Below are positions 42,414 to 61,793 of a stretch of DNA of 64,000 nt, one piece after another. The position numbers and the translations under genes were made by a program. The notes under the pieces were generated by a model that saw only the letters and a list, made by a program, of their open reading frames with translations, was not told where the DNA came from and did not search any database. How positions within the stretch are numbered: the stretch's first letter is position 1; every line of letters begins with the position of its first letter. Origin of the DNA: Alphaproteobacteria bacterium. GTDB lineage: Bacteria; Pseudomonadota; Alphaproteobacteria; Bin95. The DNA lies in NCBI GenBank assembly GCA_965660545.1, contig CBFIAF010000004.1:76655-140654 (forward strand), read 5' to 3'.

Positions 42414-43334
42414 ATGGTAAAGTCTATAATACAATTTATATTTGCAGCCGCCCTCGCGCTGACCGCGGTTATCGCGCAGCCCGCTACTGCGGCAAATCTT
42501 GGCCCCAAAACCTGCCAAGAATGCCATCGTGCTGAGTACGAGGTGTGGAAAGGCTCCGCGCACTTCAAGGCCTATCGTGGCGCGCACAAGCACAAAAATG
42601 CAAAAGCGATTGCGGCGGCTTCCGGCACTGGCAAATCCATGCGGAAAAACAAAACCTGCATGACTTGTCATTACACGGTAATTGGCAGCAAGGCGAGAGC
42701 GAAAGCTGGCCCGTCCTGCGAGAGCTGCCACGGCGGCGCTTCCAAGTGGGTAAAAATCCATAATGACCTTGGCGCTGGCGTGAAATCATCTGCGGATGAG
42801 TCTGCTGCCCACAAAAAGTCACGCCTGGCTGCAGCACAAAAAGCCGGCATGATCCATTCATCAATGGTTTACGACATCGCTGAGAACTGTAATTCCTGCC
42901 ACACCATGCAGAAGATTGACCCTGCAATGGCCGGTAAGCTGATCGATGCAGGCCATCCAATCAATGGTAGTTATGAGCTGGTGAAGTATAGCCAGGGTCA
43001 AGTTCGCCATCGCTTCTATCCGCCGAACATCACCGAGAACCAGAAAATGAACAAGGCGGAACTATCCCGCATGTTCTTGACCGGCCACGCTGCTGGTCTC
43101 GTCTATGCGACGAAGGTTCTGGAAAGTGCTGATAATGCCAAGTACAAAGCAGCTATGGAACAACGCGTCGTTGATGCAAAGAAAGCAATCGGCGCTGCTA
43201 AGGGTTCTATACCGGCTGCGGGCGCACTTTTGTCCTCACCGACGGAAGCAAACGCCAGGAAGTTCGTCGCGGCGTTGCAGGGCAAGGACCTGTCCGGTGC
43301 TGTCGGCGGCATGTTGCCCTCTGAGTACAAATAG
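42414..43334 (+). CDS. Periplasmic tetraheme cytochrome c (cytochrome c554-like CxxCH...W..S.H type)
   Basis: Signal peptide (MVKSIIQFIFAAALALTAVIAQPATAA). Four CxxCH motifs (CQECH, CMTCH, CESCH, CNSCH). First gene of the 7-gene operon. Confidence 0.85.
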   Translation: MVKSIIQFIFAAALALTAVIAQPATAANLGPKTCQECHRAEYEVWKGSAHFKAYRGAHKHKNAKAIAAASGTGKSMRKNKTCMTCHYTVIGSKARAKAGPSCESCHGGASKWVKIHNDLGAGVKSSADESAAHKKSRLAAAQKAGMIHSSMVYDIAENCNSCHTMQKIDPAMAGKLIDAGHPINGSYELVKYSQGQVRHRFYPPNITENQKMNKAELSRMFLTGHAAGLVYATKVLESADNAKYKAAMEQRVVDAKKAIGAAKGSIPAAGALLSSPTEANARKFVAALQGKDLSGAVGGMLPSEYK

Positions 43335-43458: not shown

Positions 43459-45081
43459 TTGGCCTTAGCGACAAGATTAGCGCGTCCGCAACGTTGGGAC
43501 CGTCCGTTCGATCCAGGTATGACTGCGGCAGATTTGCAACACCTAAAACTTGATCCGGTTGTCGCCGCAATTGATGCAGACGCGTTCCCAGGGACTATTC
43601 CACTTGACGGCATTCTAGCTAACGATTCGCGGGTCATTCGTTACAAAGCCGGTGAAATCGTCGTTCGCGAAGGCGATTACGGTAATTCCGCATTTCTTAT
43701 TATGTCCGGCGCTTGCGACGTTGTCGTAAATCCGCCGCTGACTGATGCTCAGCTTGGCCGTCAAACTGAAGCGCCAGCTAGCATTGCGCGCGCGATTTCA
43801 CAACTCTGGAAGCGCACTGTCGTGCCGGAAGTTCGTGACGTCAGCCGCTATGGCGATATCGCCGTCACAGAGACAGATCATCAGGCCGTTTTTCTGCAAG
43901 ATTATGGCATTGTGCTTGGCGGGCGCAGCTTGCCGCGCCTTGGCGCGCAGCAAATGTTTGGTGAGTTGGCCGCTCTGGGCCGTACCCCCCGCGCGGCAAG
44001 CGTCGTTTGTGTCGAAGACGCAGAGGTGCTTGAGATTCGCTGGCAGGGCCTGCGGGAGCTTCGTCGGTTTGATGCCGGCTGGCGCCGCCAGATCGACACC
44101 AACTACCGCGCCAATGCGCTGATCTCGCACCTGCAGGACACGCTGCTGTTCGATGGTCTGTCCGACGACGCGCTCCAATCCATCGCAGACGCGACATTGT
44201 TTGAAACTTATGGCTCCTTTGACTGGAGTTCTTCGTTCCAGCGCGCCGAAAGCGATGCGCGCCTGGATACAGAACCCGTCATTGCGCGTGAAGGCGAATA
44301 TCCAGATGGCCTCTTGCTTATCCGTGCAGGATTTGGCCGCGTTTCTGTGCGCCAAGGGGCAGCAGAACGCACACTGACTTACTTATCTGCTGGCGATCAT
44401 TTCGGCTTGAGCGAGCTTTATGCTGGCTGCAAGGGCGGTGGATCACCGATGGAAGCAACACTCCGCGCGGTCGGTTACGTGGACGCCCTACGTGTGCCAA
44501 CTAAGGTACTCGAAGAGCATGTCTTCCCGCGCATGAACACAGCGCCGGATAGCTTCCTACAGTTTGCAGCCCGCCCCCTTGCAGATGATTCACTGCAGGA
44601 ATGGGCAATCGAAGAGCGTTTCATCAACGGCACCATGGCGATGCTGATTGATTTGGATAGATGCGTGCGCTGTGACGATTGCGTGCGGGCCTGTGCGTCC
44701 ACCCACGGCGGCAACCCTCGTTTTGTCCGCCACGGCAAGATCAATGACCATTGGATGGTCGCCAATGCCTGTATGCATTGCTCTGACCCTGTCTGTATGA
44801 TCGGCTGCCCAACGGGCGCTATTCACCGGACGCAGGCGGGCGGCTCTGTTGTCATCAATGACGACAGCTGCATCGGGTGCGGTACATGCGCCAATTCCTG
44901 CCCTTATAATAATATCCGCCTCGTCGAAATTCGGGACCTGTCTGGAGCCCCGGTTCAGGACGAAGCAACCGGGCAGCCCATTCGTAAGGCGACAAAATGT
45001 GATCTTTGCGCAGGTATTCCTGGTGGCCCCGCCTGTGAGCGCGCCTGCCCGCACGGCGCTCTCCAGCGCGTTGATTTTTAG
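43459..45081 (+). CDS. Cytoplasmic protein with two cyclic-nucleotide-binding (CAP-effector-like) domains fused to a four-cluster [4Fe-4S] ferredoxin module (HybA/NrfC/PsrB-like)
   Basis: N-terminal two-thirds carry two cNMP-binding-like domains (FLIMSGACDVV; GELAALGRTPRAASVVCVEDAEVLEI). C-terminal 150 aa has four Cys clusters: CVRCDDCVRAC, CMHCSDPVCMIGCP, CIGCGTCANSCP, CDLCAGIPGGPACERACP. No signal/TAT peptide and no HTH. Confidence 0.75.
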   Translation: MALATRLARPQRWDRPFDPGMTAADLQHLKLDPVVAAIDADAFPGTIPLDGILANDSRVIRYKAGEIVVREGDYGNSAFLIMSGACDVVVNPPLTDAQLGRQTEAPASIARAISQLWKRTVVPEVRDVSRYGDIAVTETDHQAVFLQDYGIVLGGRSLPRLGAQQMFGELAALGRTPRAASVVCVEDAEVLEIRWQGLRELRRFDAGWRRQIDTNYRANALISHLQDTLLFDGLSDDALQSIADATLFETYGSFDWSSSFQRAESDARLDTEPVIAREGEYPDGLLLIRAGFGRVSVRQGAAERTLTYLSAGDHFGLSELYAGCKGGGSPMEATLRAVGYVDALRVPTKVLEEHVFPRMNTAPDSFLQFAARPLADDSLQEWAIEERFINGTMAMLIDLDRCVRCDDCVRACASTHGGNPRFVRHGKINDHWMVANACMHCSDPVCMIGCPTGAIHRTQAGGSVVINDDSCIGCGTCANSCPYNNIRLVEIRDLSGAPVQDEATGQPIRKATKCDLCAGIPGGPACERACPHGALQRVDF

Positions 45082-45092
45082 GGGCACCAAGA

Positions 45093-45923
45093 ATGATCGT
45101 CCGAACAGTCAACAGCGTCCGGCCCTTCGGCTACACCCTGGCCGCCATCGGTGCCGCTGTGATCGCCAGTCTCGCTTATTATTCGCATCAGGAACACCTG
45201 AAGCTCAGTGACGCCACCTTCGTCACGGGTTGGGTATTGCTGACAGCCATGGTCTCCCTAGCGCTTTTCAACATCCGCAAGCGTCTTTCCATGATGTCAA
45301 TGGGTAGGGCAGCTTATTGGCTTGCGCTGCACGTTGTCGTTGGCCTATTCGCTGTCGGAATGTTCATTGTCCACACAGGTGGCATGTGGGCCACAGGCTT
45401 CTATGAGCAAGTGATGGCTGGATTGTTTTGGGCGACGGCCCTGTCAGGCGTCTTCGGCTGGCTATATCAGCGCGCGATGCCAAGGCGCCTTACACGCATT
45501 GGCTATGAAGTCGTTTATGAACGAATCCCGGCTGAAATTGCCGCCCTTCGCGAGGAAGCTGAAGAAGCCACCCTTGAAGGCGTAGGTGCTAGCGGCGAAC
45601 CAACCCTCGGCCGCTTCTATTCAGAAACCATGCAGGACTTCTTCCGTCGGCCGCGCTTTATGTTAAGCCACCTCTTTGGTGCAGGTGCAGCCCAACAGTG
45701 GGTTGACCTCCGGTTCCGCACGGTGCGCGGGCTAGTTGGCTCACAAGAAGAACCCGCCCTTGCCCGACTTGAAGCTGCCGCAAGACGCAAACTCTCTATA
45801 GACGCTCATTACGCCATTCAACGCTCCTTGAAGCTTTGGGTGGCGGTCCACGTCGTGCTATCTGCAGCGATGTTAACGCTTGCAGTATGGCACCTCATCC
45901 TGGTGCATGTGTACGCCCGATGA
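45093..45923 (+). CDS. Polytopic inner-membrane protein with conserved intramembrane histidines (candidate b-type heme/quinone-interacting subunit)
   Basis: 276 aa with about 5 predicted TM helices. His pairs sit inside helices (HVVVGLFAVGMFIVH; VHVVLSAAMLTLAVWHLILVH), with a roughly 120 aa soluble loop. The gene is 11 nt after the FeS gene and its stop overlaps the next start (ATGA). Confidence 0.55.
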   Translation: MIVRTVNSVRPFGYTLAAIGAAVIASLAYYSHQEHLKLSDATFVTGWVLLTAMVSLALFNIRKRLSMMSMGRAAYWLALHVVVGLFAVGMFIVHTGGMWATGFYEQVMAGLFWATALSGVFGWLYQRAMPRRLTRIGYEVVYERIPAEIAALREEAEEATLEGVGASGEPTLGRFYSETMQDFFRRPRFMLSHLFGAGAAQQWVDLRFRTVRGLVGSQEEPALARLEAAARRKLSIDAHYAIQRSLKLWVAVHVVLSAAMLTLAVWHLILVHVYAR

Positions 45924-48028
45924 CTGAAGACAAAAATCGCTTCGCCCACGATCGATCACCCTATGAGCGCCCGAATTTTCCTTTCCGGTGCGGCAGGGAG
46001 GCAGCCTTTGGCAAACCGTGCCCACGCGGCCCGAGCGCTGGCGGTAATTGCCAGGGGATCTCGGACTGCACGCCATTCCGGACACGCAAGATCGTAACAA
46101 ACACTGAAACCGGTGAAGAAACAGAGACCCAGCGTTGGGAATGCCGCCGCCCGCAACATGCTGGCGGCCCCTGTGCTGAAGGTCCACGGCCAGACGGCAC
46201 ATGCTCTTGCATCCATCCGCCATGTGCACCTAAGCTGACTATCCGGCGTCAGCGCGGCCGCTGGGCAATGCTTGCAGTTGCCGCAATGGTAGCCATGGTA
46301 TTGGCTTTTGTCGGCGCTGCTGGCGGTATCATTGGCCCTAAACCAGATGCAAACGGCATTCTTAGTCATGTTGGCTGGCCGAGTTCAGTCAACCCTGGTC
46401 CGCTTTCCGGCAAGCATGAACAATTCACGGCCAAAGACGGCTGTATTTCATGCCATGTCGGCCATTCAGACACATTAACAGGCTGGGCTGGTGCAATATT
46501 CGAGCGCACCACTATTTCTGAGTCCTGCGTCTCGTGCCACAGCTTCGGAGAGAAACAAGCTAATTCCGACCCTAAAGCCCAATCGCCAATGGCATTCGCC
46601 GCCCATAACACGAAATTCCCGAACCGCACGAATGCCCCAACAGCATCGTGCACGGGCTGCCACACGGAACATAAAGGTGTGGGTGCATCGATCACGCCGA
46701 TGGATGATGGCCAGTGCTCTGCATGCCACACCACCAAGTTCGACAGTTTCTCCAAATCCCATCCGGCGTTTGGGACAAATTTCCCGCATGAAAGTGCACG
46801 AACCATCAAGTTTCAGCATGGCAAGCACCTAGAAACGCATTTTGTAGACCAGCGCTATATCGATAGAGCGCCAAAGAATGGCTGCATCTCCTGCCATACA
46901 GACCAAGTTGATGGGCGTTTGCTACCGGGCAGTTTTGAGAATGGCTGTGCCGCATGTCATGAACTTGCGATTAAAGAACAGGGAATGGTCGTCTTCGGCC
47001 TTCCTGAATTGAGTGACCCTGAATTGACTGCAGAAGCCCGTGACTCATGCGGCTTTCCTGTGCCACAGCGTGAGCCGGCCCGTGCGACCCTTGAAGCCCT
47101 GGCTGAGGCACTTCCGACAATGCAGGCGCTTGGTGAAAACGCCGAGTCTGGCAACCTGAATGGCGTCATGACTGCAGTTGAGGCCTTAAGTGAGGCCCAG
47201 ACCGCGATTGCCGAAGCGCGGGATGAGCTTGCAGAGGCTGTCGACATGTCAGAAGCCGTTTCCCTTGATTCGCTCTCCCCGATCGCAGCATTCCTTCTGG
47301 CTGTTCCGGCTGATGATGCAGATGAATATAGCGAAGCAGCAGCAGCCTTCCTGATTGCCGCTGCCGCCGACGGGCAGGTCCCGCTTGCCGAAGCAATCGA
47401 CGCTAAGGGTGGTGATGCAACCGCGCTGCTGGCAGGCCTTTCACCCGAGTTAGTGACGGAAGTTACTTGCGCTTGGGCCGCAAACACGGAATATGAACCT
47501 AAGCAAGACCCTGAACCGGGCGCTGGCTGGGCTGCGCAAGAGCTGCAAGTGTCTTATCTGCCAACAGGCCATGCGGATGCTGTGACCAAGGGATGGATTG
47601 CACTTGGTCTAGCAAATCGTGGCAGTCAAGATGAAGGTGTCGAAGCTTTTGCTGACCTCGTGCTCAGTGCGGGCGACGGGCCGGGTCGTTGCTTTAAGTG
47701 TCACGTCGCACCAGCGGCAGATGCTGAAAAACAAGTCGTACAATGGGCTATTCCACGCGCAGATGTTCGCCCATTCACAACTTTCAATCATGATCCGCAC
47801 TTAAATGTACTAGATCAGGGAGCCGGATGTGCGACATGCCATAGTCAGTTGGAGCCGGGCGCAACCTTGGCTGATGGGCAATCTCGCCCAGGGCCGCATG
47901 CAAACGACTTCAAGCCGATCGATCAAGCAACTTGCAAAGATTGTCACCGCCCGGGCGCGGTTCGGCAGGATTGCGCACTTTGCCACCGCTACCATAGCAA
48001 TCCATCCATCCGGAAACGGACGTTGTGA
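45920..48028 (+). CDS. Membrane-anchored multiheme cytochrome c (10 CxxCH) with Cys-rich N-terminal region
   Basis: Ten CxxCH motifs arranged 6+4, split by a roughly 200 aa Ala/Glu-rich low-complexity linker. One hydrophobic helix (WAMLAVAAMVAMVLAFVGAAGG) sits after a roughly 110 aa N-terminal region containing 9 Cys (C-x10-C-x8-C-x5-C ... C-x9-C-x7-C-x-C-x4-C). The start at 45920 is inferred from the ATGA overlap. Confidence 0.75.
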   Translation: MTEDKNRFAHDRSPYERPNFPFRCGREAAFGKPCPRGPSAGGNCQGISDCTPFRTRKIVTNTETGEETETQRWECRRPQHAGGPCAEGPRPDGTCSCIHPPCAPKLTIRRQRGRWAMLAVAAMVAMVLAFVGAAGGIIGPKPDANGILSHVGWPSSVNPGPLSGKHEQFTAKDGCISCHVGHSDTLTGWAGAIFERTTISESCVSCHSFGEKQANSDPKAQSPMAFAAHNTKFPNRTNAPTASCTGCHTEHKGVGASITPMDDGQCSACHTTKFDSFSKSHPAFGTNFPHESARTIKFQHGKHLETHFVDQRYIDRAPKNGCISCHTDQVDGRLLPGSFENGCAACHELAIKEQGMVVFGLPELSDPELTAEARDSCGFPVPQREPARATLEALAEALPTMQALGENAESGNLNGVMTAVEALSEAQTAIAEARDELAEAVDMSEAVSLDSLSPIAAFLLAVPADDADEYSEAAAAFLIAAAADGQVPLAEAIDAKGGDATALLAGLSPELVTEVTCAWAANTEYEPKQDPEPGAGWAAQELQVSYLPTGHADAVTKGWIALGLANRGSQDEGVEAFADLVLSAGDGPGRCFKCHVAPAADAEKQVVQWAIPRADVRPFTTFNHDPHLNVLDQGAGCATCHSQLEPGATLADGQSRPGPHANDFKPIDQATCKDCHRPGAVRQDCALCHRYHSNPSIRKRTL

Positions 48029-48036
48029 GGATTAAG

Positions 48037-49809
48037 ATGATGGAAGAGAGAAAGATGGAATTTGGAATCCGCCCCTTGGGGCGCCGCCTTCTAATTGCTG
48101 GCGCTTTCGCCGCTGCGGTATTTGGCATGCCAATTACAGCAGTAGCAGCCGAAAAAGAAGATCCGCATGCGGATCTTATGGCCGAGGAAAGCTACCCAAC
48201 AGCCGCCCAATGTGGTGCCTGTCACACCCAGGTCTATCGCGAATGGGCGTCGTCTAACCACGCATACGCATCGATTTCGCCGATGTTCCACAAGTTCGAG
48301 CAGAAGATTAATGATCTCTCGAGCGGCACCATCCGAGGCTTCTGCGTACGGTGCCATCAACAGATCGGCACGCAGCTCAATGAACGCCGCGACCTCCCGC
48401 TTTGGGAACGCAATCAGATTTCACGCGAAGGCATTTCCTGCGTGACGTGCCACCGCGTCCGTGAAGAATTCGGCAAGGTCAACGGCGAACGCCGGATCAT
48501 CCCAGGCCAGGTCTACACGCCTGTCAGCGGTGTTGGCGATGGCAAAAAGCTAAAGGAAATCATTGAGAACCGTAGCGAATATCGTGTTGCGGTTAGCGAA
48601 AAGGAACGCGGGGCCCAGATTCACACGGGCGTTTACAAGTTCCCACAGATTTCTAAGTCAGAATTCTGTGTGTCTTGTCACCAGGTCGCTGTGAACCCAG
48701 GCATCAAGCTTGAAGTTGTTTGGGAGCAGTATAGAAACTCCCCAGCAGCCGCTAATGGCGTCACGTGTCAGGATTGCCATATGGGCAAAGTGCCAGGCCG
48801 GGCTGACGGTTATGCAACCGGGCCCGTCGCAATCGTTAATGGTGAAGAAATCAATCCGGACCGCAGGCACTCCAACCATGCCTTCTACGGCCCTGGCTAC
48901 CCAATTGCTCATCCTGGCATCTTCCCACACAACCCAGATGCAGCTGAAATTCCCATCGAAGACTGGCTGGAATTCGACTACCGCTCTAAGTGGGGCTCGG
49001 AAGAATTTGAAGAGAAAGTCGCCAACGGCGAGATTGATGAAGACAGCCTGCCAGACGCATGGTCCGATTCAGTTGACCGTGAGGAAGCTTGGGAAATCAT
49101 CCAGGAGAACGTCGGACTTCTGGAAGAAAAACGCGACCTTCGCCGTCAAGTGATGGAAAATGGTTCTCGTCTTGATGGCCCGTTCTTCGCTAGCGCGCCA
49201 AAACAAGGGTCCTCCCTCAGCTTTGACATCAAACTGACCAACACAGATGACGGCCATAACCTGCCGTCTGGTTCTCTCGGTGCCCAGCCTGAAATCTGGC
49301 TGAATGTTGCTGTCGTATCGCCCAGCGGCAAGACAGTATGGGAATCTGGTTACGTTGATGGGAATGGCGATATGGCCGACATTCACTCCCTAGAGGTAAG
49401 AGCGGGCAAAATCGAATATGATGACCAGCTTTTCAACTTGCAAACCAAGTTTCTATTCACGAACGTTAAGGGGACTGAACGCGAATGGTATCTGCCAATA
49501 AATATCGATATCGATCAGCTTCCATTCATCCGCCCAGCAAACGTGCCGACGACTATCCTAAACCATGCGCCATTTATCCGCATGGAAGGTCGTTCGATTC
49601 CACCACTTGGGTTTCGCAACGCTAGCTACACCGTGCCGGCAGATGCGTTGACGGAAAAAGGTACTTACAAAATGGCCGTCCGACTGCGGAGCCGCGCCGA
49701 ACCGATCTACTTCATGCGGTTCGTCGATTCGACGCCGGAAATGGAAGAAGCCATGAACAGCTGGATGCTTGATTTCCATTCCTACACCGTGGAATTTGAA
49801 GTCAACTGA
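48037..49809 (+). CDS. Secreted pentaheme cytochrome c with large heme-free C-terminal domain
   Basis: Signal peptide. Five CxxCH (CGACH, CVRCH, CVTCH, CVSCH, CQDCH), all in the first roughly 280 aa. A roughly 300 aa C-terminal domain has no heme motif. GAGGA RBS before the ATG at 48037; the ORF track starts at a GTG at 48025 that overlaps the upstream stop. Confidence 0.8.
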   Translation: MMEERKMEFGIRPLGRRLLIAGAFAAAVFGMPITAVAAEKEDPHADLMAEESYPTAAQCGACHTQVYREWASSNHAYASISPMFHKFEQKINDLSSGTIRGFCVRCHQQIGTQLNERRDLPLWERNQISREGISCVTCHRVREEFGKVNGERRIIPGQVYTPVSGVGDGKKLKEIIENRSEYRVAVSEKERGAQIHTGVYKFPQISKSEFCVSCHQVAVNPGIKLEVVWEQYRNSPAAANGVTCQDCHMGKVPGRADGYATGPVAIVNGEEINPDRRHSNHAFYGPGYPIAHPGIFPHNPDAAEIPIEDWLEFDYRSKWGSEEFEEKVANGEIDEDSLPDAWSDSVDREEAWEIIQENVGLLEEKRDLRRQVMENGSRLDGPFFASAPKQGSSLSFDIKLTNTDDGHNLPSGSLGAQPEIWLNVAVVSPSGKTVWESGYVDGNGDMADIHSLEVRAGKIEYDDQLFNLQTKFLFTNVKGTEREWYLPINIDIDQLPFIRPANVPTTILNHAPFIRMEGRSIPPLGFRNASYTVPADALTEKGTYKMAVRLRSRAEPIYFMRFVDSTPEMEEAMNSWMLDFHSYTVEFEVN

Positions 49810-49888: not shown

Positions 49889-51415
49889 GTGACACCAAGT
49901 TTTCTAAAGATGACCGGGCGCATTGCAATGGCGACAGCGGCTTCCGCACTGGCGATGATGGTCGCCACTGGCGGCCCTGCATATGCGGCGAGTGCCCATG
50001 ACGACAGTCCGCGCAAGATGGATCCTAATGTCAAACCGTCAGAGCATGACTCTGATGTCTTCAAGGCGGATCCAACATACGAAGAGAAAGTGTATGACGC
50101 TGAGCGCCAACTCGAAATCTATGGCGGCAAGCGCAACATTGAGGAGCCACGCCCGATCCTAGAAGTTGGTCGTCCGCAATATGTCGAAGGTCCTTTCGAC
50201 GAAGGCATTAATGTAATTGGCGAAAAGAACCTTTTGTTCCCATCGTTTTCAGTTTTTGGTGACGTCCGTACAGCGGTAGCCGCGAATGACGTTGGCGGTG
50301 ATGTTGTGTACGAGTTTGCCAACCGCCTGAACCTGGACCTCGACCTTAAGCTAACCGCCACAGAACGTGTTCACGGCTTCTTCCGCCCGATCGACGAGAA
50401 CGGTAAGTTCATAGGATATCGGACCGGCGATAAGAGGGGCAATAATGGCCGTGACGGTAAGCTCGATGCAAACCCAGAAACATTATTCTTTGAAGGTGAT
50501 ATTGGTGCCATATATGGCGGGTTAGCAGACGAATACACAACCTTTGACCTGCCAATCGCATTTGGTTTGACACCCTTCGTCATGCAGAATGGGCTTTGGG
50601 TTGATGAGGCCTTTGTTGGGGGCGGCATATCACTCGCTGCAATGAACAGTCGTACACTTGATATCACAAACATGGACATCACCTTCTTTGGTGGTTTCGA
50701 TGAAATCGATTCACCGGCATTCGTTGGCCAGGACGGTGTCCTAGATACAGACGACGTATCAATTTATGCCGTAGCCGCTTTCGTCGATTGGTTCGAAGGC
50801 TATTCTGAGTTCGGTATCGGCTATGTCGACGGAAGAGAGCAACTCAACGATATTGACTATTTCAACTTTACCGGTGCCTATACGTCACGGTATGGCGGCT
50901 GGCTCTCCAACTCCGTCAGGCTATTTGGCGCTGTGGGTCAAGATACAAACGGCCGTGCTAAAACGGCCGATGGCTTTGCCTTACTCATAGAAAACTCTTT
51001 GATCACGTCCAAGCCAGATGTCTTTGTTCCCTATTTCAATGGCTGGGTTGGTATCGATAAGCCGCAATCCCTCGCACGCAACAACGGCGGGCTATTGAAG
51101 AACACCGGCATCACGTTCGAGAACGACGGCATGACCTCTTTTCCGACGCTGGATGATACCGCACAAGACACATTCGGTGGTGCCATCGGCGTCAACTATC
51201 TGTTCAGTCTAGACCAGCAGCTCGTGGTTGAAGCGTCTACGGTTCAAAGACTTGATACTGCCTCACCTGCTCAGGGTGGTCAGTATGCTGTTGGCTTCCG
51301 CTATCAGATCCCAGTCACGAACCGGGTTATCCTGCGTACAGACGGTATCTACGGCATTCGGGAAAGCCAGGAAGACATTGGCGGCGTTCGCTTCGAGCTG
51401 CGCGTTAAATTCTAA
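49889..51415 (+). CDS. Outer-membrane beta-barrel protein (porin-like; candidate cytochrome conduit)
   Basis: Signal peptide (MTGRIAMATAASALAMMVATGGPAYAASA), alternating amphipathic beta-strand pattern, Gly/aromatic-rich, and a C-terminal ...RFELRVKF ending in Phe, the OMP sorting signature. Confidence 0.65.
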   Translation: MTPSFLKMTGRIAMATAASALAMMVATGGPAYAASAHDDSPRKMDPNVKPSEHDSDVFKADPTYEEKVYDAERQLEIYGGKRNIEEPRPILEVGRPQYVEGPFDEGINVIGEKNLLFPSFSVFGDVRTAVAANDVGGDVVYEFANRLNLDLDLKLTATERVHGFFRPIDENGKFIGYRTGDKRGNNGRDGKLDANPETLFFEGDIGAIYGGLADEYTTFDLPIAFGLTPFVMQNGLWVDEAFVGGGISLAAMNSRTLDITNMDITFFGGFDEIDSPAFVGQDGVLDTDDVSIYAVAAFVDWFEGYSEFGIGYVDGREQLNDIDYFNFTGAYTSRYGGWLSNSVRLFGAVGQDTNGRAKTADGFALLIENSLITSKPDVFVPYFNGWVGIDKPQSLARNNGGLLKNTGITFENDGMTSFPTLDDTAQDTFGGAIGVNYLFSLDQQLVVEASTVQRLDTASPAQGGQYAVGFRYQIPVTNRVILRTDGIYGIRESQEDIGGVRFELRVKF

Positions 51416-51463: not shown

Positions 51464-52729
51464 ATGGATAATTTGGCGAACTATGTCGCCATAGGTGCAG
51501 CCGGGCTGCTGGGCCTTTACATTTTGTCTCTGCTGATGGGCTCGCTCCGTCAGCAGAGCCAAATGGCGCGGCATTATGAGGAACAATCACAGCTATTCCG
51601 CGCACGTGCGGAAGGCTTGCAGAGGATCCGTGCTGAAGAGATCGAGAAAACCCAAAACACCTGGGCAGGCCTTCGGAAATTCAAAGTTGCCCGTAAGATC
51701 AATGAGATCACAGATTGCCACTCCATCTACCTTGAACCTCATGACGGTCGGCCCCTACCGCCGTTTGAGCCAGGCCAGTTTCTAACGTTCAAGTTTGCTG
51801 TGCCCGATCAGCCTAGCGACGTAATACGTTGCTACTCCCTGTCAGACGCACCTGGCCGTGACTACTACAGGATTACCGTCAAGAAGGTGCCACCGCCCCG
51901 TGGCAAGCCTGAAATAGCACCTGGTGTGTCCTCCACCTTCGTAAATGAAGTCTTGAATGAAGGCGATATAATTGATGTACGTGCGCCCAATGGCGGCTTC
52001 TATCTGAAGCGTGAACATAAACGTCCAGTCGTCCTAATCGGTGGCGGCGTTGGCATCACACCAGTGCTCAGCATGCTGAACTACATTGTGGAGCATGAGC
52101 CGCAGCGGGAAACATGGTTCTTCTTTGGGGCGCCCAATAAAGCCGGCCATATTATGAAGGATCACCTAGCCCAAATTGCTGCGGAAAATCCTAATATCCG
52201 CATGAACATTTGCTACAGCGACCCATCAGATGACGATGTGTTTGGGGAAGATTACGACCATCACGCCCGCGTTTCCGTAGAGCTGTTCAAGAAAGTCCTG
52301 CCTTCTAACAATTTCGAATATTACTTCTGCGGCCCACCGCCAATGATGAATGCGCTTGATGCGGACCTCAAAGCTTGGGGCGTACCAGAAGCCGATATTC
52401 ACTCTGAAGGCTTTGGCCCTGCTTCAGTTAAGAAGCCCAAACCACCTGCTGTAGAAGGTGCTGCAGAATTAGCATCTGTATCGGTAACGTTTGCTAAATC
52501 TGGCAAGACATTGGATTGGACGCCTGCTGCTGGAACAATTCTTGATTTGGCGGAAGCAAACGGTGTTGATGTTGCTTCGGGTTGCCGGGCCGGCAGCTGT
52601 GGTACTTGCCTCACCGCCGTTATAGAAGGCGATGTGGATTACGCAACGCCGCCAGACGCTCCGATCGAAAATGGCTCTTGCCTCGCGTGTGTCGGCACCC
52701 CGAAAGGGCCAATCAAGATAAACGCCTAA
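51464..52729 (+). CDS. Membrane-anchored FNR-family flavoprotein reductase with C-terminal plant-type [2Fe-2S] ferredoxin domain
   Basis: N-terminal TM helix (VAIGAAGLLGLYILSLLMGS), FAD motif RCYSLSD, NAD(P) motif GGGVGITP, C-terminal CRAGSCGTCL...CLACV 2Fe-2S motif. Last gene of the operon. Confidence 0.75.
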   Translation: MDNLANYVAIGAAGLLGLYILSLLMGSLRQQSQMARHYEEQSQLFRARAEGLQRIRAEEIEKTQNTWAGLRKFKVARKINEITDCHSIYLEPHDGRPLPPFEPGQFLTFKFAVPDQPSDVIRCYSLSDAPGRDYYRITVKKVPPPRGKPEIAPGVSSTFVNEVLNEGDIIDVRAPNGGFYLKREHKRPVVLIGGGVGITPVLSMLNYIVEHEPQRETWFFFGAPNKAGHIMKDHLAQIAAENPNIRMNICYSDPSDDDVFGEDYDHHARVSVELFKKVLPSNNFEYYFCGPPPMMNALDADLKAWGVPEADIHSEGFGPASVKKPKPPAVEGAAELASVSVTFAKSGKTLDWTPAAGTILDLAEANGVDVASGCRAGSCGTCLTAVIEGDVDYATPPDAPIENGSCLACVGTPKGPIKINA

Positions 52730-52821: not shown

Positions 52822-54024
52822 CTAAACGATCCCACTTGCCTTCAGTGATGCAATATCCTCACTGGAAAGGTTGAGGACTTCACAAAGGATTTCATCCGTG
52901 TGATGCCCAATAGGCGGACCGGCATGGGCAATCCGCCCAGGCGTGCCCGTTAGATTAGGAGAAACCCCAGGCATTGGTATGTCGCCCAATTCCTCATCCG
53001 GAACGGTCACAATGTTCTTGCGGGCCTCAAAATGGGGATCTTCAGCGATATCAGCGGCGGTATAGATCCCGCCGAAGGGTACATTGCCGCCAACAAGCCG
53101 CGCTTCGATCTCCGCGAAGGCGTGCGCGCTAATCCAATCTCCCAGCAGCGCTTCAAGTTCATCAGCCCGCTCAATTCTGGCAGCGCTTTGGGCGTAGCGG
53201 GGATCTGTCGCAAGTTCTGGCATGCCAATGGCGTCTGCCAATCTTTTAAACACGCCATCACCACCAGCCGCAATCTGGACGTAGCGCCCATCTTTGGTTT
53301 CGAATGTCCCGGCGGGAGAGAATGTAGGATTGCGGTTGCCAATTCGCTCCCGGACCTCCCCATTCATCATATACTTGGAGATTAGGTCTGCTGTAATGCG
53401 GAATGGCGCTTCGTAGAGGCCAAGGTCAATCATCTGCCCCACTCCCCCCTGCGCATCACGCTGATAGAGCGCTAACATCGCTGAAAGCGCACCAAAAGTG
53501 CCGGTATTATAGTCTGCCGTCGGAAAAGCAGGGCGAACGGGGAAGCGATCTGGGAACCCGGTTGGGTACATATAGCCCGAGAAACCAAGCGCAATCCGAT
53601 CATAGCCCGATCGCTTGGAGTATGGCCCCGTTTGCCCATAACCAGACACGCGAACCATAATCAGACGTGGATTAACGGCCTTTAGGTCTTCCCAGCCTAT
53701 ATTCCATCGCTCCAACGTGCCCGGCGTGAAGTTCTCCATCACGATGTCTGCAGTCGCGGCCAGGTCCCTTAGAATCTTCTGGCCTTCAGGAACCCGCAGA
53801 TTGAGCGTGATCGATTTCTTGTTGCGGCCCTCGATTAGCCAGTTTGGTGGTCGACCAGCTGCACCATCAACAGGCGTGCCACGCAACGCATCGCCGCGAC
53901 CAGGCTGCTCGACTTTAATGACCTCAGCGCCAAAATCGCCAAGCAACGTGGCACCGAACGGTCCAGCAATCAGCGTGCCGATGTCCAGCACACGCACACC
54001 GGCAAGTGGCAAGGGCGTCGTCAT
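52822..54024 (-). CDS. CaiB/BaiF family III CoA-transferase
   Basis: N-terminus MTTPLPLAGVRVLDIGTLIAGPFGATLLGDFGAEVIKVEQP is the family signature. 400 aa. Confidence 0.85.
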   Translation of the reverse strand: MTTPLPLAGVRVLDIGTLIAGPFGATLLGDFGAEVIKVEQPGRGDALRGTPVDGAAGRPPNWLIEGRNKKSITLNLRVPEGQKILRDLAATADIVMENFTPGTLERWNIGWEDLKAVNPRLIMVRVSGYGQTGPYSKRSGYDRIALGFSGYMYPTGFPDRFPVRPAFPTADYNTGTFGALSAMLALYQRDAQGGVGQMIDLGLYEAPFRITADLISKYMMNGEVRERIGNRNPTFSPAGTFETKDGRYVQIAAGGDGVFKRLADAIGMPELATDPRYAQSAARIERADELEALLGDWISAHAFAEIEARLVGGNVPFGGIYTAADIAEDPHFEARKNIVTVPDEELGDIPMPGVSPNLTGTPGRIAHAGPPIGHHTDEILCEVLNLSSEDIASLKASGIV

Positions 54025-55628: not shown

Positions 55629-56135
55629 CTATTGCTGCAGAGACTGTAATCCGGCGGTCAAGCCGCGCAAGGAAAATGGCAGCTGAATCGCCTCACGCCG
55701 TAAGTCATAAAACATTAACCAACCATTGGCGCCGGCCTGCATCGCGGCCAAAAGCTGCGGCTCAACATCAAGCTCGACATGACACCCTCGCTTGTCGCAG
55801 AACTTAAATGCCCCCCAGCCATCTACGCCTTGGTCCGTGCGCACACGCAAACCATCCGGCAGGTGAACAGCGCCAAGCGGCATGTTAATCACCACAACCG
55901 GCCCACTTTTCCCAGACTTGAAGCCGAGTGTGATGTTCGCCACCTGCTTGCCTTGGTATGAGACCCGCTGGAACACAAAACAGACCTCCTGCCGTTGCCC
56001 CCCAGCTTCACAGGCTTCCGTCCAATCCCGGAATGTCCGCCCGGTTTGGCGCACTGACTGCGCCTCAGCAACACTGCTCAAAACGACAAGCATCGCCAAT
56101 GCCATTACCGTGACGGTTTGAACTGCTCGAATCAT
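55629..56135 (-). CDS. Invasion-associated locus B (IalB) family protein
   Basis: Signal peptide and IalB-like sequence (WTEACEAGGQRQEVCFVFQRV...). 168 aa. Confidence 0.75.
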   Translation of the reverse strand: MIRAVQTVTVMALAMLVVLSSVAEAQSVRQTGRTFRDWTEACEAGGQRQEVCFVFQRVSYQGKQVANITLGFKSGKSGPVVVINMPLGAVHLPDGLRVRTDQGVDGWGAFKFCDKRGCHVELDVEPQLLAAMQAGANGWLMFYDLRREAIQLPFSLRGLTAGLQSLQQ

Positions 56136-56665: not shown

Positions 56666-57427
56666 TTAGCGGGGAATTAATTGGTTCCCGCCATGCTGAT
56701 CCATCCCCCGCATCAAATATACGGGGCGCATGGAATGATCTACAATATTGCGCGCCTTTGCATCTGCCGCTGCAATCTCACGATCAAACAGGCTCGTTGT
56801 TGGCATGAACCGCATCGTCAATCCTCGACGCGGATTAGGGGACGTGTTCGCTTCAGACCCATGCAGCAGAAACACATCATGCAAGGATATCTGGCCAGCT
56901 TTTAACACGAGATCAACGGCATTTGCCTCGTCATATGTAGAAGGATCAAGCTCCTCAAACAAGGTAACGTCGGCGTCTTCATTGAGCGCATTATGGGCCT
57001 TGATGGCCCGGTCTTTGTGGGAGCCGCGAATAATACGCAGGCAGCCGTTTTCTATGGTCGCATCATCAACGGCAAGCCATGCAGTGCAAGTTGCAAGCGG
57101 GCGGATCGGCCAGAACTTACCGTCCTGATGCCAAGGCGTACGCTGACCATTCGACGCAGGCTTTGCAAAGAAGCTTGAATTCCAAAGCGCGAGATCCTGC
57201 CCAATCAGCTGCGCGACCATATCCAAGATCGCAGCATTGTCACAAATCTCAACAAACGCCTCATCTTGATCCAGCAGAGCCGGGCAGTAGTTCCGAAAAT
57301 CTGGGCGACGCTCCACCAAGGCTGCATGCCGTTCTTTCACGCGGTCTAGAATGGATTCCGGCATTTGGAAATCTGGAATCACGTAACCATGCTCGTGATA
57401 ATGCTCTATCTGCATGTCGTTAAGCAT
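56666..57427 (-). CDS. Phytanoyl-CoA dioxygenase (PhyH) family Fe(II)/2OG oxygenase
   Basis: MLNDMQIEHYHEHGYVIPDF N-terminus and HxD...H facial-triad region (WHQDGKFW ... LHGSEANTS). AGGAGG RBS before the ATG at 57427. Confidence 0.75.
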   Translation of the reverse strand: MLNDMQIEHYHEHGYVIPDFQMPESILDRVKERHAALVERRPDFRNYCPALLDQDEAFVEICDNAAILDMVAQLIGQDLALWNSSFFAKPASNGQRTPWHQDGKFWPIRPLATCTAWLAVDDATIENGCLRIIRGSHKDRAIKAHNALNEDADVTLFEELDPSTYDEANAVDLVLKAGQISLHDVFLLHGSEANTSPNPRRGLTMRFMPTTSLFDREIAAADAKARNIVDHSMRPVYLMRGMDQHGGNQLIPR

Positions 57428-57715
57428 ATCTGCACCTCCTGCCCATCTTCGGCCCATCTTACGTGATTAGGCGAGCCGTTTTGATTGGACATAAGTCTAG
57501 CAGTGTCCATACCGCTTTTGACACGACAAAAAAGAAATGGCCTCAAGCACGCATTATTGAGCTCGAAGCCATTTCAATATCAGGCAGCTTAGGCTGTGCC
57601 AGCCCGTTCCAAAGGTCGCGCTAGCCTAGAACTTTATGCGGTAACCAGCGCCAACAAGGAACGTATCGTCGATTTCGATGCCGTTTGATTCAACTTCAAT
57701 CCACGAATACTAAGC

Positions 57716-59618: not shown

Positions 59619-60107
59619 TTGGCACCACGTGCTAATATCTCTAGGTCGAATCGCCAAGCCGAAAGACGAGGGCTTAAGTTGTCGCAACTACCTAACATCT
59701 TGGCCGAGCTTCTAGGCGGCGAATGGGCGGACCATCGCCGCGGGCAATCCTTGGCGGAAGCCAGCATGGCCGCCGCCGTTCTCGTGGCGACCGCTGAAGG
59801 TGACGTGAGTTTTACTGAGCGCGCATTGATCGATCAAGCCATTAATGCGCTTTCAGACCTTGGTGCGATTTCCACCCAAGACGCAGCGGCACTGTTCAAT
59901 AAATTCGTTGACGGCACTCGTGCGAATAGCAGCCAGGGTCGCCGCCAAGCGCTGGATGCTCTGGCCAGAATTGAAGGCATTGCTGAGGCTGCAACCATCG
60001 TGCTGCGCATTGCAGATGCCGTTGCAAGTGCTGATGGCTCAGCCTCTGCCGCTAAAATCACTGTAGTACAAGATATCGCAGCGGCACTAAACACAGCGGC
60101 TTCTTAG
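59619..60107 (+). CDS. TerB-like (tellurite-resistance TerB family) protein
   Basis: All-alpha TerB-like sequence (AEASMAAAVLVATAEGDVSFTERALIDQAINAL...). The start codon is uncertain. Confidence 0.55.
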   Translation: MAPRANISRSNRQAERRGLKLSQLPNILAELLGGEWADHRRGQSLAEASMAAAVLVATAEGDVSFTERALIDQAINALSDLGAISTQDAAALFNKFVDGTRANSSQGRRQALDALARIEGIAEAATIVLRIADAVASADGSASAAKITVVQDIAAALNTAAS

Positions 60108-61339
60108 GAGTACTTACGCCGGTCAACCAAAGCCACGCCATCATTGATCAGCTTTTCAATCTCATCAGCGCTGATACCAGCTTCCTCCAGAACCGCCCGC
60201 GTGGCAGAGCCAAACTTCGGCGGGGCAGAGCGCGCGCCACCCGGTGTACGAGATAGCTTCGCCTGAACGCCAAGCGCACCATATCCATCATCAGCACCAA
60301 CGCGCATCTGTCGGGAGATTGTGTGCGGGTGCTCCATTACATCGGGGATCGTATTGACAGGCCCCGCCGGAACGCCCTTTTGCAGAAGCCCCAATGCCAG
60401 CGGCTCGCATTCATATTGCGCCAGTTTATCTGCCAGCAACGCTTTTAGTACGTCACGGTTTGATGACCGGTCGGCATTGTTCTTAAAGCGCAGGTCATCT
60501 GCCAGTTCAGGCGCATCAATCGCATCAGCCAGCCGTTTGAACTGACCATTGTTGCCAATGGCCAAGAACAGGTCTTTGTCCTTCGTTGGGAACACGTCAT
60601 AGGGATAGACGTTCGGATGGGCGTTGCCGGTAATGACGGGCGGCTTACCGCTCATCAGGTAGTTATTCCCTTGCGGATGTAGCAGTGCCACGGCGCTGTC
60701 ATATAGGGTGATATCCAGGAACTGCCCCTTGCCTGATTTACCACGCTCCAAAAGCGCCATCAGGATCGCGATGGCGGCATTCAGGCCCGTACCCATGTCC
60801 ACCATTGGCGTGCCGACGCGGACTGGGCCAGATTCTGGCGAACCGTTGACGCTCATCATGCCCGACATTGCTTGAATCACGGCGTCATAGCCTGGAAAGC
60901 CACCGAGCGGCCCATCTGAACCGAAACCGGTTACGCGACAATGGACGAGCAGCGGATAGCGCTCCGCCAGAAAGTCTTTGTAGCCGAGACCCCATCTCTC
61001 CAGCGTGCCTGGCTTGAAGTTCTCAATCAGAACATCCGCGTCCTCGAGCAGCTTACCAAGCACAGCTTTTCCGGCCTCGCTGGAGAGATCAAGGCCGATA
61101 GAGCGCTTATTGCGGTTGACGCCCTGGTAATACGCACTCTCGCCATCATCGTTGAATGGAGGGCCCCAATCCCGTGTTTCATCGCCCTGAGGTGGCTCGA
61201 CCTTGATCACTTCCGCGCCATGGTCGGCAAGGATCATCGTGCAATACGGCCCACCCAGAACGCGGGTGAGGTCAATAACCTTATACCCGGCAAGGGCGCC
61301 ACCGCTCATGGTTGCGAATGGGGAACTATCAGGAGACAT
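60104..61339 (-). CDS. CaiB/BaiF family III CoA-transferase
   Basis: LAGYKVIDLTRVLGGPYCTMILADHGAEVIKVEPP family signature. The start is set at the ATG at 61339 rather than the ORF start at 61447. Confidence 0.8.
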   Translation of the reverse strand: MSPDSSPFATMSGGALAGYKVIDLTRVLGGPYCTMILADHGAEVIKVEPPQGDETRDWGPPFNDDGESAYYQGVNRNKRSIGLDLSSEAGKAVLGKLLEDADVLIENFKPGTLERWGLGYKDFLAERYPLLVHCRVTGFGSDGPLGGFPGYDAVIQAMSGMMSVNGSPESGPVRVGTPMVDMGTGLNAAIAILMALLERGKSGKGQFLDITLYDSAVALLHPQGNNYLMSGKPPVITGNAHPNVYPYDVFPTKDKDLFLAIGNNGQFKRLADAIDAPELADDLRFKNNADRSSNRDVLKALLADKLAQYECEPLALGLLQKGVPAGPVNTIPDVMEHPHTISRQMRVGADDGYGALGVQAKLSRTPGGARSAPPKFGSATRAVLEEAGISADEIEKLINDGVALVDRRKYS

Positions 61340-61358
61340 TTTATAACTTTCTCGGACC

Positions 61359-61793
61359 TTAATCGGTTGGACGACCCACGACCCAAAGATAGCCATCGGG
61401 ATCAAACATATAGGCCTCACGCAAGCCATGGCCCTTATCGAGCGCACCGGCGAAGATCACATCGCCCCGCGCCCGAGCGCGCGCTTCAGCAGCATCGGGG
61501 TCCATATTGTGCAGGCGCAATTCTACGCCTACGCCCCGATGCGCGCCCTCAGCTAAGCTGCCGTGAATTGGATGGCTGTCATATGTGTGATCTGCATGCA
61601 GAGTCCACTCCGCCCCCTGGGCACGCATGAACGCAAAGTCCGGGTCGGCATAGAAGGCTTCAGCTTCCAGTACCTCTGTCGCAAACGCAACGGCTACTGG
61701 TACATCCTGCACCAAAAGGTTCACGCCAAACCCTTTCAGGGACTTGCTATAAGCATCCGCTGGCATCCAGGGGTCGCCTTCGTGCTTCTTCAT
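61359..61793 (-). CDS. VOC (glyoxalase/bleomycin-resistance/dioxygenase) family protein
   Basis: 144 aa with a paired beta-alpha-beta-beta-beta module signature. Overlaps the upstream gene stop by 4 nt. Confidence 0.65.
   Translation of the reverse strand: MKKHEGDPWMPADAYSKSLKGFGVNLLVQDVPVAVAFATEVLEAEAFYADPDFAFMRAQGAEWTLHADHTYDSHPIHGSLAEGAHRGVGVELRLHNMDPDAAEARARARGDVIFAGALDKGHGLREAYMFDPDGYLWVVGRPTD

Follow-up and report, generated by a model that had tools for sequence, protein, structure and literature searches.

In the 64,000-nucleotide stretch of Alphaproteobacteria bacterium DNA analysed here (the window; NCBI GenBank assembly GCA_965660545.1, contig CBFIAF010000004.1, positions 76,655 to 140,654 of the forward strand), ptdG (45920-48028, + strand, stop codon 48026-48028) encodes a 702-residue decaheme cytochrome c of the PCC4/Ptd porin-cytochrome cluster. 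Our best overall explanation, to which we give a probability of about 0.6, is that PtdG is a bitopic protein whose predicted metal-binding, cysteine-rich head docks or couples the iron-sulfur (Fe-S) protein PtdE to the membrane protein PtdF and to the periplasmic hemes. From its N-terminus, PtdG comprises this head, a basic stretch, one transmembrane (TM) helix, six CxxCH motifs, a helical domain and four further CxxCH motifs. The head is strongly conserved and, in the loci examined, occurs only beside PtdE, and PtdG thus probably anchors a route that takes electrons across the membrane.

Comparative evidence places the start of ptdG at the upstream ATG

The initial annotation favoured a start of ptdG at the ATG of an ATGA sequence (45920-45923, + strand) that overlaps the TGA stop codon of ptdF, a junction predicted to couple translation of the two genes, and named as an alternative the ATG within WAMLAVAAM, which would leave about 345 nt untranslated. 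Conservation of the head, codon bias and conservation of the junction all back the first placement. About 45 full-length PtdG homologues (630-715 aa, 30-93% identity), retrieved in a search of 5.8 billion proteins, all cover the N-terminus and begin with the head, which speaks against the alternative. Conservation of the Cys-rich segment among homologues had been proposed as a check, and when 30 sequences are aligned, the N-terminal segment comes out as the best conserved of the whole protein. Compared with four close loci, residues 1-116 differ by 22 synonymous and 5 nonsynonymous codon changes, 33 and 7, 23 and 5, and 46 and 12, respectively, resulting in a synonymous excess of about 4:1 and a bias at least as strong as that in the remainder of ptdG. 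The ATGA junction is identical in L003-L005 and has one base different upstream in L006; in L001, the called ptdF and ptdG genes overlap by 4 bp. Among distant relatives, those from Nitrospinota, Planctomycetia and Oceanococcus have a ptdG that begins right after the stop codon of the upstream gene. Thus, with the head best conserved, its eight Cys kept at 99% or more, the synonymous excess near 4:1 and the junction retained, the upstream ATG at 45920 is, on these comparisons, the real start.

Most pipelines call the exact 702-aa product. Some JGI/IMG calls in the same 90%-identity cluster (P0319, P0318 and P0315) give 586, 580 and 577 aa, from M117, M123 and M126, and these head-cutting starts lend PtdG the look of an ordinary secreted cytochrome. 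Along with the periplasmic PSORTb prediction in the ptd preprint (bioRxiv 10.1101/2023.11.21.568154), such calls would fit an upstream segment that is untranslated or functionless and a product that runs from M117 with a normal signal peptide. We consider this account very improbable and reject a start at M117, because no other part of the protein is as well conserved as the head, at identities as low as 30% and in several phyla, and because the synonymous excess, the conserved overlap of stop and start, and the position of the distant genes directly behind the ptdF stop all argue against it. The short calls are a gene-calling artefact, which probably helped to hide the head; we flag it here as a recurring error.

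Two homologous four-cysteine modules make up the head

The head (residues 1-106; 45920-46237, + strand) is predicted to be cytoplasmic. Residues 1-116 contain nine cysteines (C24, C34, C44, C50, C75, C85, C95, C97 and C102), in the number and place given in the initial annotation; the spacing given there was off by one in four places and is in fact C-x9-C-x9-C-x5-C ... C-x9-C-x9-C-x-C-x4-C. Eight of the nine (C24, C34, C44, C50, C75, C85, C95 and C102) are invariant in the 30-sequence alignment, as are R17, P18, G25, G37, G42, G46, P52, R77, G82, G83, G88, P89, G93, P104 and R112. In an alignment of 194 head sequences, most of which represent clusters at 50% identity, conservation of the eight Cys reaches 99-100%, and C97 is present in only 35%. 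Judged by these alignments, the eight-Cys pattern far exceeds what chance would give.

When 1.84 billion representative proteins were searched with a profile built on residues 1-116, 617 clusters matched at E<=1e-3, 549 of them at E<=1e-10. Of the best 150 matches, all but two begin within ~25 residues of the N-terminus, and a single hydrophobic helix at ~95-100 is found together with ten CxxCH motifs in nearly all full-length matches (600-1134 aa). The two exceptions, P0080 and P0167, have internal heads and were considered as natural PtdF-PtdG fusions or other architectures and set aside; they look like mis-called upstream starts, with a Pro/Arg-rich leader before the normal start motif.

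The two halves of the head are homologous to each other (hhalign probability 97%, E 3.8e-11) and share the repeat unit W/F-x-C-[GR]-R-x5-G-x-P-C-x2-G-P-x2-D-G-x-C-x5/6-C-x-P. The head is thus, from profile comparison, a tandem duplication of a ~35-aa module with four Cys. Module 1 (residues 15-53; 45962-46078, + strand) holds C24, C34, C44 and C50 in the pattern YERPN..F.CGR..G.PC..GP...G.C.G...C.P, and module 2 (residues 72-104; 46133-46231, + strand) holds C75, C85, C95 and C102 in the pattern RW.C.RP..GGPC..GP.PDG.C....PPC.P. Between them lies a clade-specific insert (residues 54-71; 46079-46132, + strand), found only in relatives with 54-93% identity and not in more distant homologues, which AlphaFold2 models as part of a beta-hairpin (strands 53-60 and 67-74). 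A PtdG homologue from a Planctomycetia metagenome-assembled genome (MAG; L033, 9902-11938) has a single four-Cys module (YLRPDRPYVCGRKGDPCFRGPSSSGVCPHGEAACVPE) directly before the helix, and its locus retains PtdE. Because only one module precedes the helix in this protein, a module is an autonomous four-Cys unit. This defines a new, unannotated module of ~35 residues in more than 600 clusters at 50% identity.

The head has no match in Pfam, NCBIfam or the Protein Data Bank (PDB), and when searched alone it has no Fer4 match even at E<=10. Residues 1-116 contain no CxxCxxCxxxCP motif of the kind found in 2x[4Fe-4S] ferredoxins, nor do they contain the paired CxxC knuckles, the HxxxCxxC motif or the fold of a zinc ribbon or zinc-binding anti-sigma factor. 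From eight invariant Cys in a reducing compartment we infer that the head binds one metal centre per module. Zn and Fe-S are about equally likely in these predicted sites.

A single signal-anchor helix points to a bitopic protein

The head is followed by a basic juxtamembrane stretch, KLTIRRQRGRW (46232-46264, + strand), in which R109 is near-invariant and R112 invariant, and by the single predicted TM helix (residues 116-134; 46265-46321, + strand; Kyte-Doolittle hydropathy 2.47), which in the AlphaFold2 model spans residues 108-134. Across 145 family members, the 15 residues before the helix contain on average 4.66 Lys and Arg, versus 0.84 in the 15 after it. This bias has the same sign in 99.3% of the proteins, in agreement with the cytoplasmic head and single signal-anchor helix put forward in the initial annotation. 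The N-terminal segment carries a mean net charge of +7.4 across the family. Heme c is attached in the periplasm, and the CxxCH domains must therefore lie outside; the Lys and Arg bias and the periplasmic CxxCH domains together place the head in the cytoplasm and make the helix a signal anchor. We infer that PtdG is a bitopic inner-membrane protein and not a soluble periplasmic one. A twin-arginine signal was also considered and rejected, since RR is not conserved and the conserved pattern is R-x2-R-G-R. One helix without cofactors or ligands for them cannot carry electrons across the membrane, and this task most likely falls to PtdF.

The head co-occurs with PtdE in PCC4/Ptd loci

The window gene is PtdG of subgroup II of the PCC4/Ptd cluster. 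PCC4 was described as comprising a porin, three multihemes called "periplasmic" (4, 5 and 10 hemes), and a membrane protein of five TM helices whose TM3 and TM5 each carry WX3HX13H; upstream of the membrane-protein gene, subgroup II has an Fe-S (pfam13247) gene that subgroup I lacks (He et al. 2017, PMC5566968). The genes were named ptdABCDEFG in 2024, with PtdG as "a periplasmic deca-heme protein" (periplasmic by PSORTb); ptdAB were highly transcribed in oxygen-deficient-zone bacteria, and the function of the cluster was called "completely unknown" (bioRxiv 10.1101/2023.11.21.568154). In the window, the Fe-S gene (ptdE) lies directly upstream of ptdF, tetraheme, pentaheme, porin and FNR-like genes are present, and gene set and local order are the same as in PCC4 subgroup II and the ptd operon. 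The operon and the PtdG family are therefore not a new system but already known from these two bioinformatic papers. Both treat the decaheme as soluble and periplasmic, and text searches of the two (PMC5566968; bioRxiv 10.1101/2023.11.21.568154) found no mention of its Cys-rich head. The head, its tandem modules, the two-sided anchored topology and the co-occurrence with PtdE appear to be undescribed.

The same seven ptd genes are found in L001-L033. D-E-F-G are contiguous in every sufficiently complete locus, in Alpha- and Gammaproteobacteria, Nitrospinota, Verrucomicrobiota and Planctomycetota, with A-B(-C) after G or before D. The closest relatives of the window are MAGs of uncultured marine Alphaproteobacteria (95% identity), and the family is also found in Rhodospirillales, Geminicoccaceae, Nitrospinota, Verrucomicrobiales, Oceanococcus, Planctomycetia and Phycisphaerales. 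Among marine bacteria, PCC4/Ptd is widespread in the Alpha- and Gammaproteobacteria, Nitrospinota, Planctomycetota and Verrucomicrobiota. Cultured carriers listed in the ptd preprint include Roseibium aggregatum, Tistlia consotensis and Ferruginivarius sediminum (bioRxiv 10.1101/2023.11.21.568154).

Two weak matches, P0048 and P0049, are homologous decahemes in which the helix is preceded by a basic tail of just ~25 residues. A search with P0049 gave 895 matches; among the best 120, none has a match to the head profile or a Cys before the helix, 117 have ten CxxCH motifs, and one is named Methyloceanibacter. Four head-less loci (L035-L038) have the order C'-D-F-G without PtdE, and their FNR-like gene has a Fer2 N-terminal part; this arrangement is PCC4 subgroup I of He et al. 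Like PtdG, the subgroup I decahemes (Hyphomicrobium/Methyloceanibacter type, e.g. P0049 and P0291) are ten-heme proteins with an N-terminal signal anchor, encoded immediately behind a di-heme-b membrane protein of the same kind. They differ from PtdG in their Cys-free basic tail, in the absence of a ptdE gene and in the Fer2 N-terminal part of the FNR-like protein, which also lacks the N-terminal hydrophobic helix of PtdC. Counting all loci with enough upstream sequence, head and PtdE occur together in 29, both are absent from 4, and mixed cases number 0; the head tracks PtdE in the loci examined.

A predicted electron path through PtdE, PtdF and PtdG

PtdE (540 aa; 43459-45081, + strand) is a predicted cytoplasmic protein with cyclic-nucleotide (cNMP)-binding domains and [4Fe-4S] Cys motifs, and it has no hydrophobic helix. 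Its four Cys motifs (residues 402, 438, 471 and 514) are of the DmsB/HybA four-cluster type, with a PF13247 (Fer4_11) match at E 8.8e-9 (35.9 bits vs a cut-off of 26.2); the ptd preprint counts two clusters (bioRxiv 10.1101/2023.11.21.568154). The first cNMP-binding domain keeps the canonical FGELAAL..PRAAS phosphate-binding cassette, which suggests that the electron path may be gated by a cyclic nucleotide. Mean net charge across the PtdE family is -8.6. The listed TTG start of ptdE may be too far upstream.

PtdF (276 aa; 45093-45923, + strand) is a 5-TM, ferric-reductase-like membrane protein and a predicted di-heme-b wire. Four His are invariant in 31 sequences, H80/H94 on TM3 and H253/H267 on TM5, each pair 14 apart, which is predicted to be the bis-His di-heme-b pattern of the ferric-reductase-domain superfamily that He et al. 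pointed out for PCC4 (PMC5566968). With five TM helices and the N-in topology indicated by the positive-inside rule, H80 and H253 would lie near the cytoplasmic face and H94 and H267 near the periplasmic face. PtdF is below the Pfam Ferric_reduct threshold and has only a weak DUF4405 match.

In the favoured explanation, each head module would bind one metal centre through its four Cys, and the basic head (about +7) would dock the acidic, four-cluster, cNMP-binding PtdE at the cytoplasmic face of PtdF, perhaps also relaying electrons from it. The two bis-His b-hemes of PtdF would then carry electrons across the bilayer to the adjoining hemes of PtdG, whose helix would hold the c-heme chain beside the outer heme of PtdF. 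The full path, in whichever direction electrons flow, might run from NAD(P)H to PtdC (FAD, 2Fe-2S) and PtdE (4Fe-4S chain, cyclic-nucleotide-gated), then perhaps through the head to PtdF (inner and outer heme b), the c-hemes of PtdG, PtdD/PtdA and the PtdB porin. PtdE, PtdF and PtdG would then form one transmembrane complex fed from the cytoplasm and not from the quinone pool, and the decaheme, drawn in both published models as a shuttle free in the periplasm, would instead be a subunit of the inner membrane whose conserved cytoplasmic head tracks PtdE.

Several points weigh against this explanation. The modules have no known Fe-S or zinc-finger signature (no CxxC, no CxxCxxCxxxCP), and the AlphaFold2 model of the head is of moderate quality (pLDDT 72) and mainly coil. 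Charge complementarity is weak, as the Fe-S domain of PtdE is itself about neutral. Signal peptidase might cleave after the helix, where the sequence is variable among homologues, freeing the hemes and leaving the head as a membrane peptide. Finally, subgroup I has neither head nor PtdE, so the PtdF-PtdG core does not need the head, and the four head-less loci come from one clade and may represent about one ancient gain or loss.

In a sharper version of the favoured explanation, the head would be a redox-active Fe-S domain of a new fold and the last relay between PtdE and the cytoplasmic-side heme b of PtdF. Its eight invariant Cys sit in a coil-like domain that is cytoplasmic and rich in Gly and Pro, with x-Pro after the last Cys of each module and an aromatic residue before the first; the duplicated four-Cys unit recalls the origin of 2x[4Fe-4S] ferredoxins by duplication, a single module can stand alone (L033), and the head co-occurs strictly with an Fe-S protein in an electron-transfer operon. 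If so, PtdG would combine cytoplasmic Fe-S centres and ten periplasmic c-hemes in one polypeptide. However, the head has no known Fe-S motif and no match in the domain and structure databases, PtdE could reach the heme of PtdF directly, as in NarH-NarI, making an extra relay unneeded, and subgroup I transfers electrons without a head; we regard an Fe-S head as possible but doubtful.

A structural Zn domain, with two Zn ions, one per module, would tether PtdE and perhaps PtdC and carry no electrons itself. Structural Zn sites typically have this form, with four Cys in a small, basic domain rich in coil, and both the co-occurrence with PtdE and the opposite charges of head and PtdE (+7.4 vs -8.6) suit such a tether, as does a PtdF/PtdG core that works without the head in subgroup I. 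We hold this reading only tentatively. It is improbable that the head serves as a sensing or signalling module, akin to an anti-sigma factor, or as a thiol switch that reports the cytoplasmic redox state. The topology is that of a transmembrane anti-sigma factor (N-terminal cytoplasmic Cys/Zn domain, one TM helix, periplasmic sensor), and the system is clearly regulated, given the regulatory cNMP-binding domains of PtdE with their intact cassette. However, the 33 loci with enough upstream sequence share no conserved sigma factor or transcription regulator, the HxxxCxxC motif and helical fold of zinc-binding anti-sigma factors are absent, and eight invariant Cys in two homologous four-Cys units suit metal sites better than a thiol switch.

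Taken furthest, the favoured explanation would make Ptd a cyclic-nucleotide-gated, quinone-independent conduit between NAD(P)H and the exterior, running in either direction, with a new-fold Fe-S cluster in each module and widespread in marine bacteria. We offer this extension as speculative and, in its entirety, unlikely.

Periplasmic heme domains and a folded helical domain

The ten hemes, initially annotated as six CxxCH followed by four, are found as such. Periplasmic heme domain I (46397-46960, + strand) has six CxxCH at 46442, 46526, 46649, 46715, 46883 and 46946 (beginning at C175, C203, C244, C266, C322 and C343) and matches Pfam Paired_CXXCH_1 and Cytochrom_c3_2. Periplasmic heme domain II (47690-47995, + strand), which resembles cytochromes c7 and c3, has four at 47690, 47828, 47933 and 47972 (C591, C637, C672 and C685); PF14522 matches residues 621-690 (42.4 bits vs a cut-off of 24.8), within this C-terminal four-heme domain only. 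A PDB sequence search with PtdG returned only the c7 domain of an ACIII ActA-like protein (E 0.044). There was no match of PtdG to TIGR03508 (the MtrA/DmsE/PioA/MtoA decahemes) at E<=0.1, and none to PF03264 (membrane-anchored quinol dehydrogenases of the NapC/NirT/CymA type); the NrfH model reached E 0.046 and 13.8 bits vs a cut-off of 134. Two relatives, P0091 and P0159, have 14 CxxCH rather than ten.

Between the heme domains lies the periplasmic helical domain (residues 348-590, 243 aa; 46961-47689, + strand). The initial annotation described it as an Ala/Glu-rich, low-complexity linker. The composition stands (A 21%, E 11%, L 11%). A disordered low-complexity linker, however, is ruled out by the AlphaFold2 model of the full-length protein, in which residues ~345-590 have pLDDT 85-97 and form long helices (381-410, 413-441) and several shorter ones, and by the invariant or near-invariant residues L507, W537, Y546, D553, C377, C517, W519, N522, E524 and H551. 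In the model, then, this part folds as a helical domain in the periplasm, into which a variable acidic segment is inserted, and its length differs between homologues. For the heme regions, pLDDT is low in the same model, as expected without cofactors. Structural neighbours of the full model were only generic helical bundles, none at E<=1e-3. The near-invariant C377, C517 and H551 may provide a disulfide and a distal heme ligand that tie the helical domain to the heme chain. Some family members are considerably longer than PtdG; in P0026 and P0032, the helical domain contains a ~300-aa insertion with a PF14326 match and long Ala/Glu repeats.

Comparison with known electron-transfer systems

In TmcABCD, HmcABCDEF and DsrMKJOP, complexes of sulfate reducers, one transmembrane electron path links a multiheme cytochrome c in the periplasm, a membrane subunit with heme b and an Fe-S protein in the cytoplasm; DsrJ keeps an uncleaved signal anchor, and the cytoplasmic subunits use CCG domains. 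Ptd follows the same logic, but beyond c3-like heme motifs there is no sequence relation, and the HmcA and TmcA models fall far below their cut-offs on PtdG. We know of no Tmc, Hmc or Dsr complex in which a Cys-rich cytoplasmic head is fused to the cytochrome c. The MtrA/DmsE/PioA/MtoA proteins are soluble periplasmic decahemes inserted in an MtrB-type porin, whereas PtdG has a signal anchor and no cleaved signal peptide.

In ferric-reductase-domain systems (NOX/FRE, and MsrQ with a flavin reductase) and in NarH-NarI, a membrane protein with two bis-His b-hemes takes electrons from a cytoplasmic NAD(P)H/flavin or Fe-S module and moves them across the membrane; the inner side of Ptd is of similar design. 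PtdF shares the His pairs on TM3 and TM5, but has five TM helices where these systems have six. Ptd also differs in its acceptor, a tethered decaheme cytochrome c with a head of its own, and in a donor side divided between PtdC and PtdE. In NosR, a bipolar redox membrane protein of the NosR/NapH type, a flavin domain lies in the periplasm and [4Fe-4S] clusters with canonical ferredoxin motifs lie in the cytoplasm, and there are several TM helices. Should the head bind Fe-S, PtdG would be similar to NosR in carrying cofactors on both membrane faces in one polypeptide. In contrast to NosR, it has one helix, c-hemes and a non-canonical C-x9-C-x9-C-x5/6-C pattern, and no homology was detected between PtdG and these proteins.

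Other genes of the cluster and downstream genes

The remaining genes of the cluster lie on the + strand on either side of ptdE-ptdF-ptdG. PtdD (42414-43334) is a c554-like tetraheme cytochrome with a signal peptide, and PtdA (48025-49809) is a pentaheme cytochrome. The listed GTG start of ptdA at 48025 overlaps the stop codon of ptdG; the start is probably the ATG at 48037, which lies behind GAGGA (48027-48031). PtdB (508 aa; 49889-51415) is a putative outer-membrane porin, so called in both papers and placed by synteny; it has no Pfam match. PtdC (51464-52729) is an NAD-binding, 2Fe-2S oxidoreductase with an N-terminal TM helix (MDNLANYVAIGAAGLLGLYILSLLMG, Kyte-Doolittle 2.08), and it is probably membrane-anchored, not soluble.

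Downstream of the Ptd cluster, on the - strand, are two CoA-transferase family III genes (52822-54024 and 60104-61447). The interval between these two includes an IalB-like gene (55629-56135) and one resembling phytanoyl-CoA dioxygenase (56666-57457). All four appear unrelated to the Ptd cluster.

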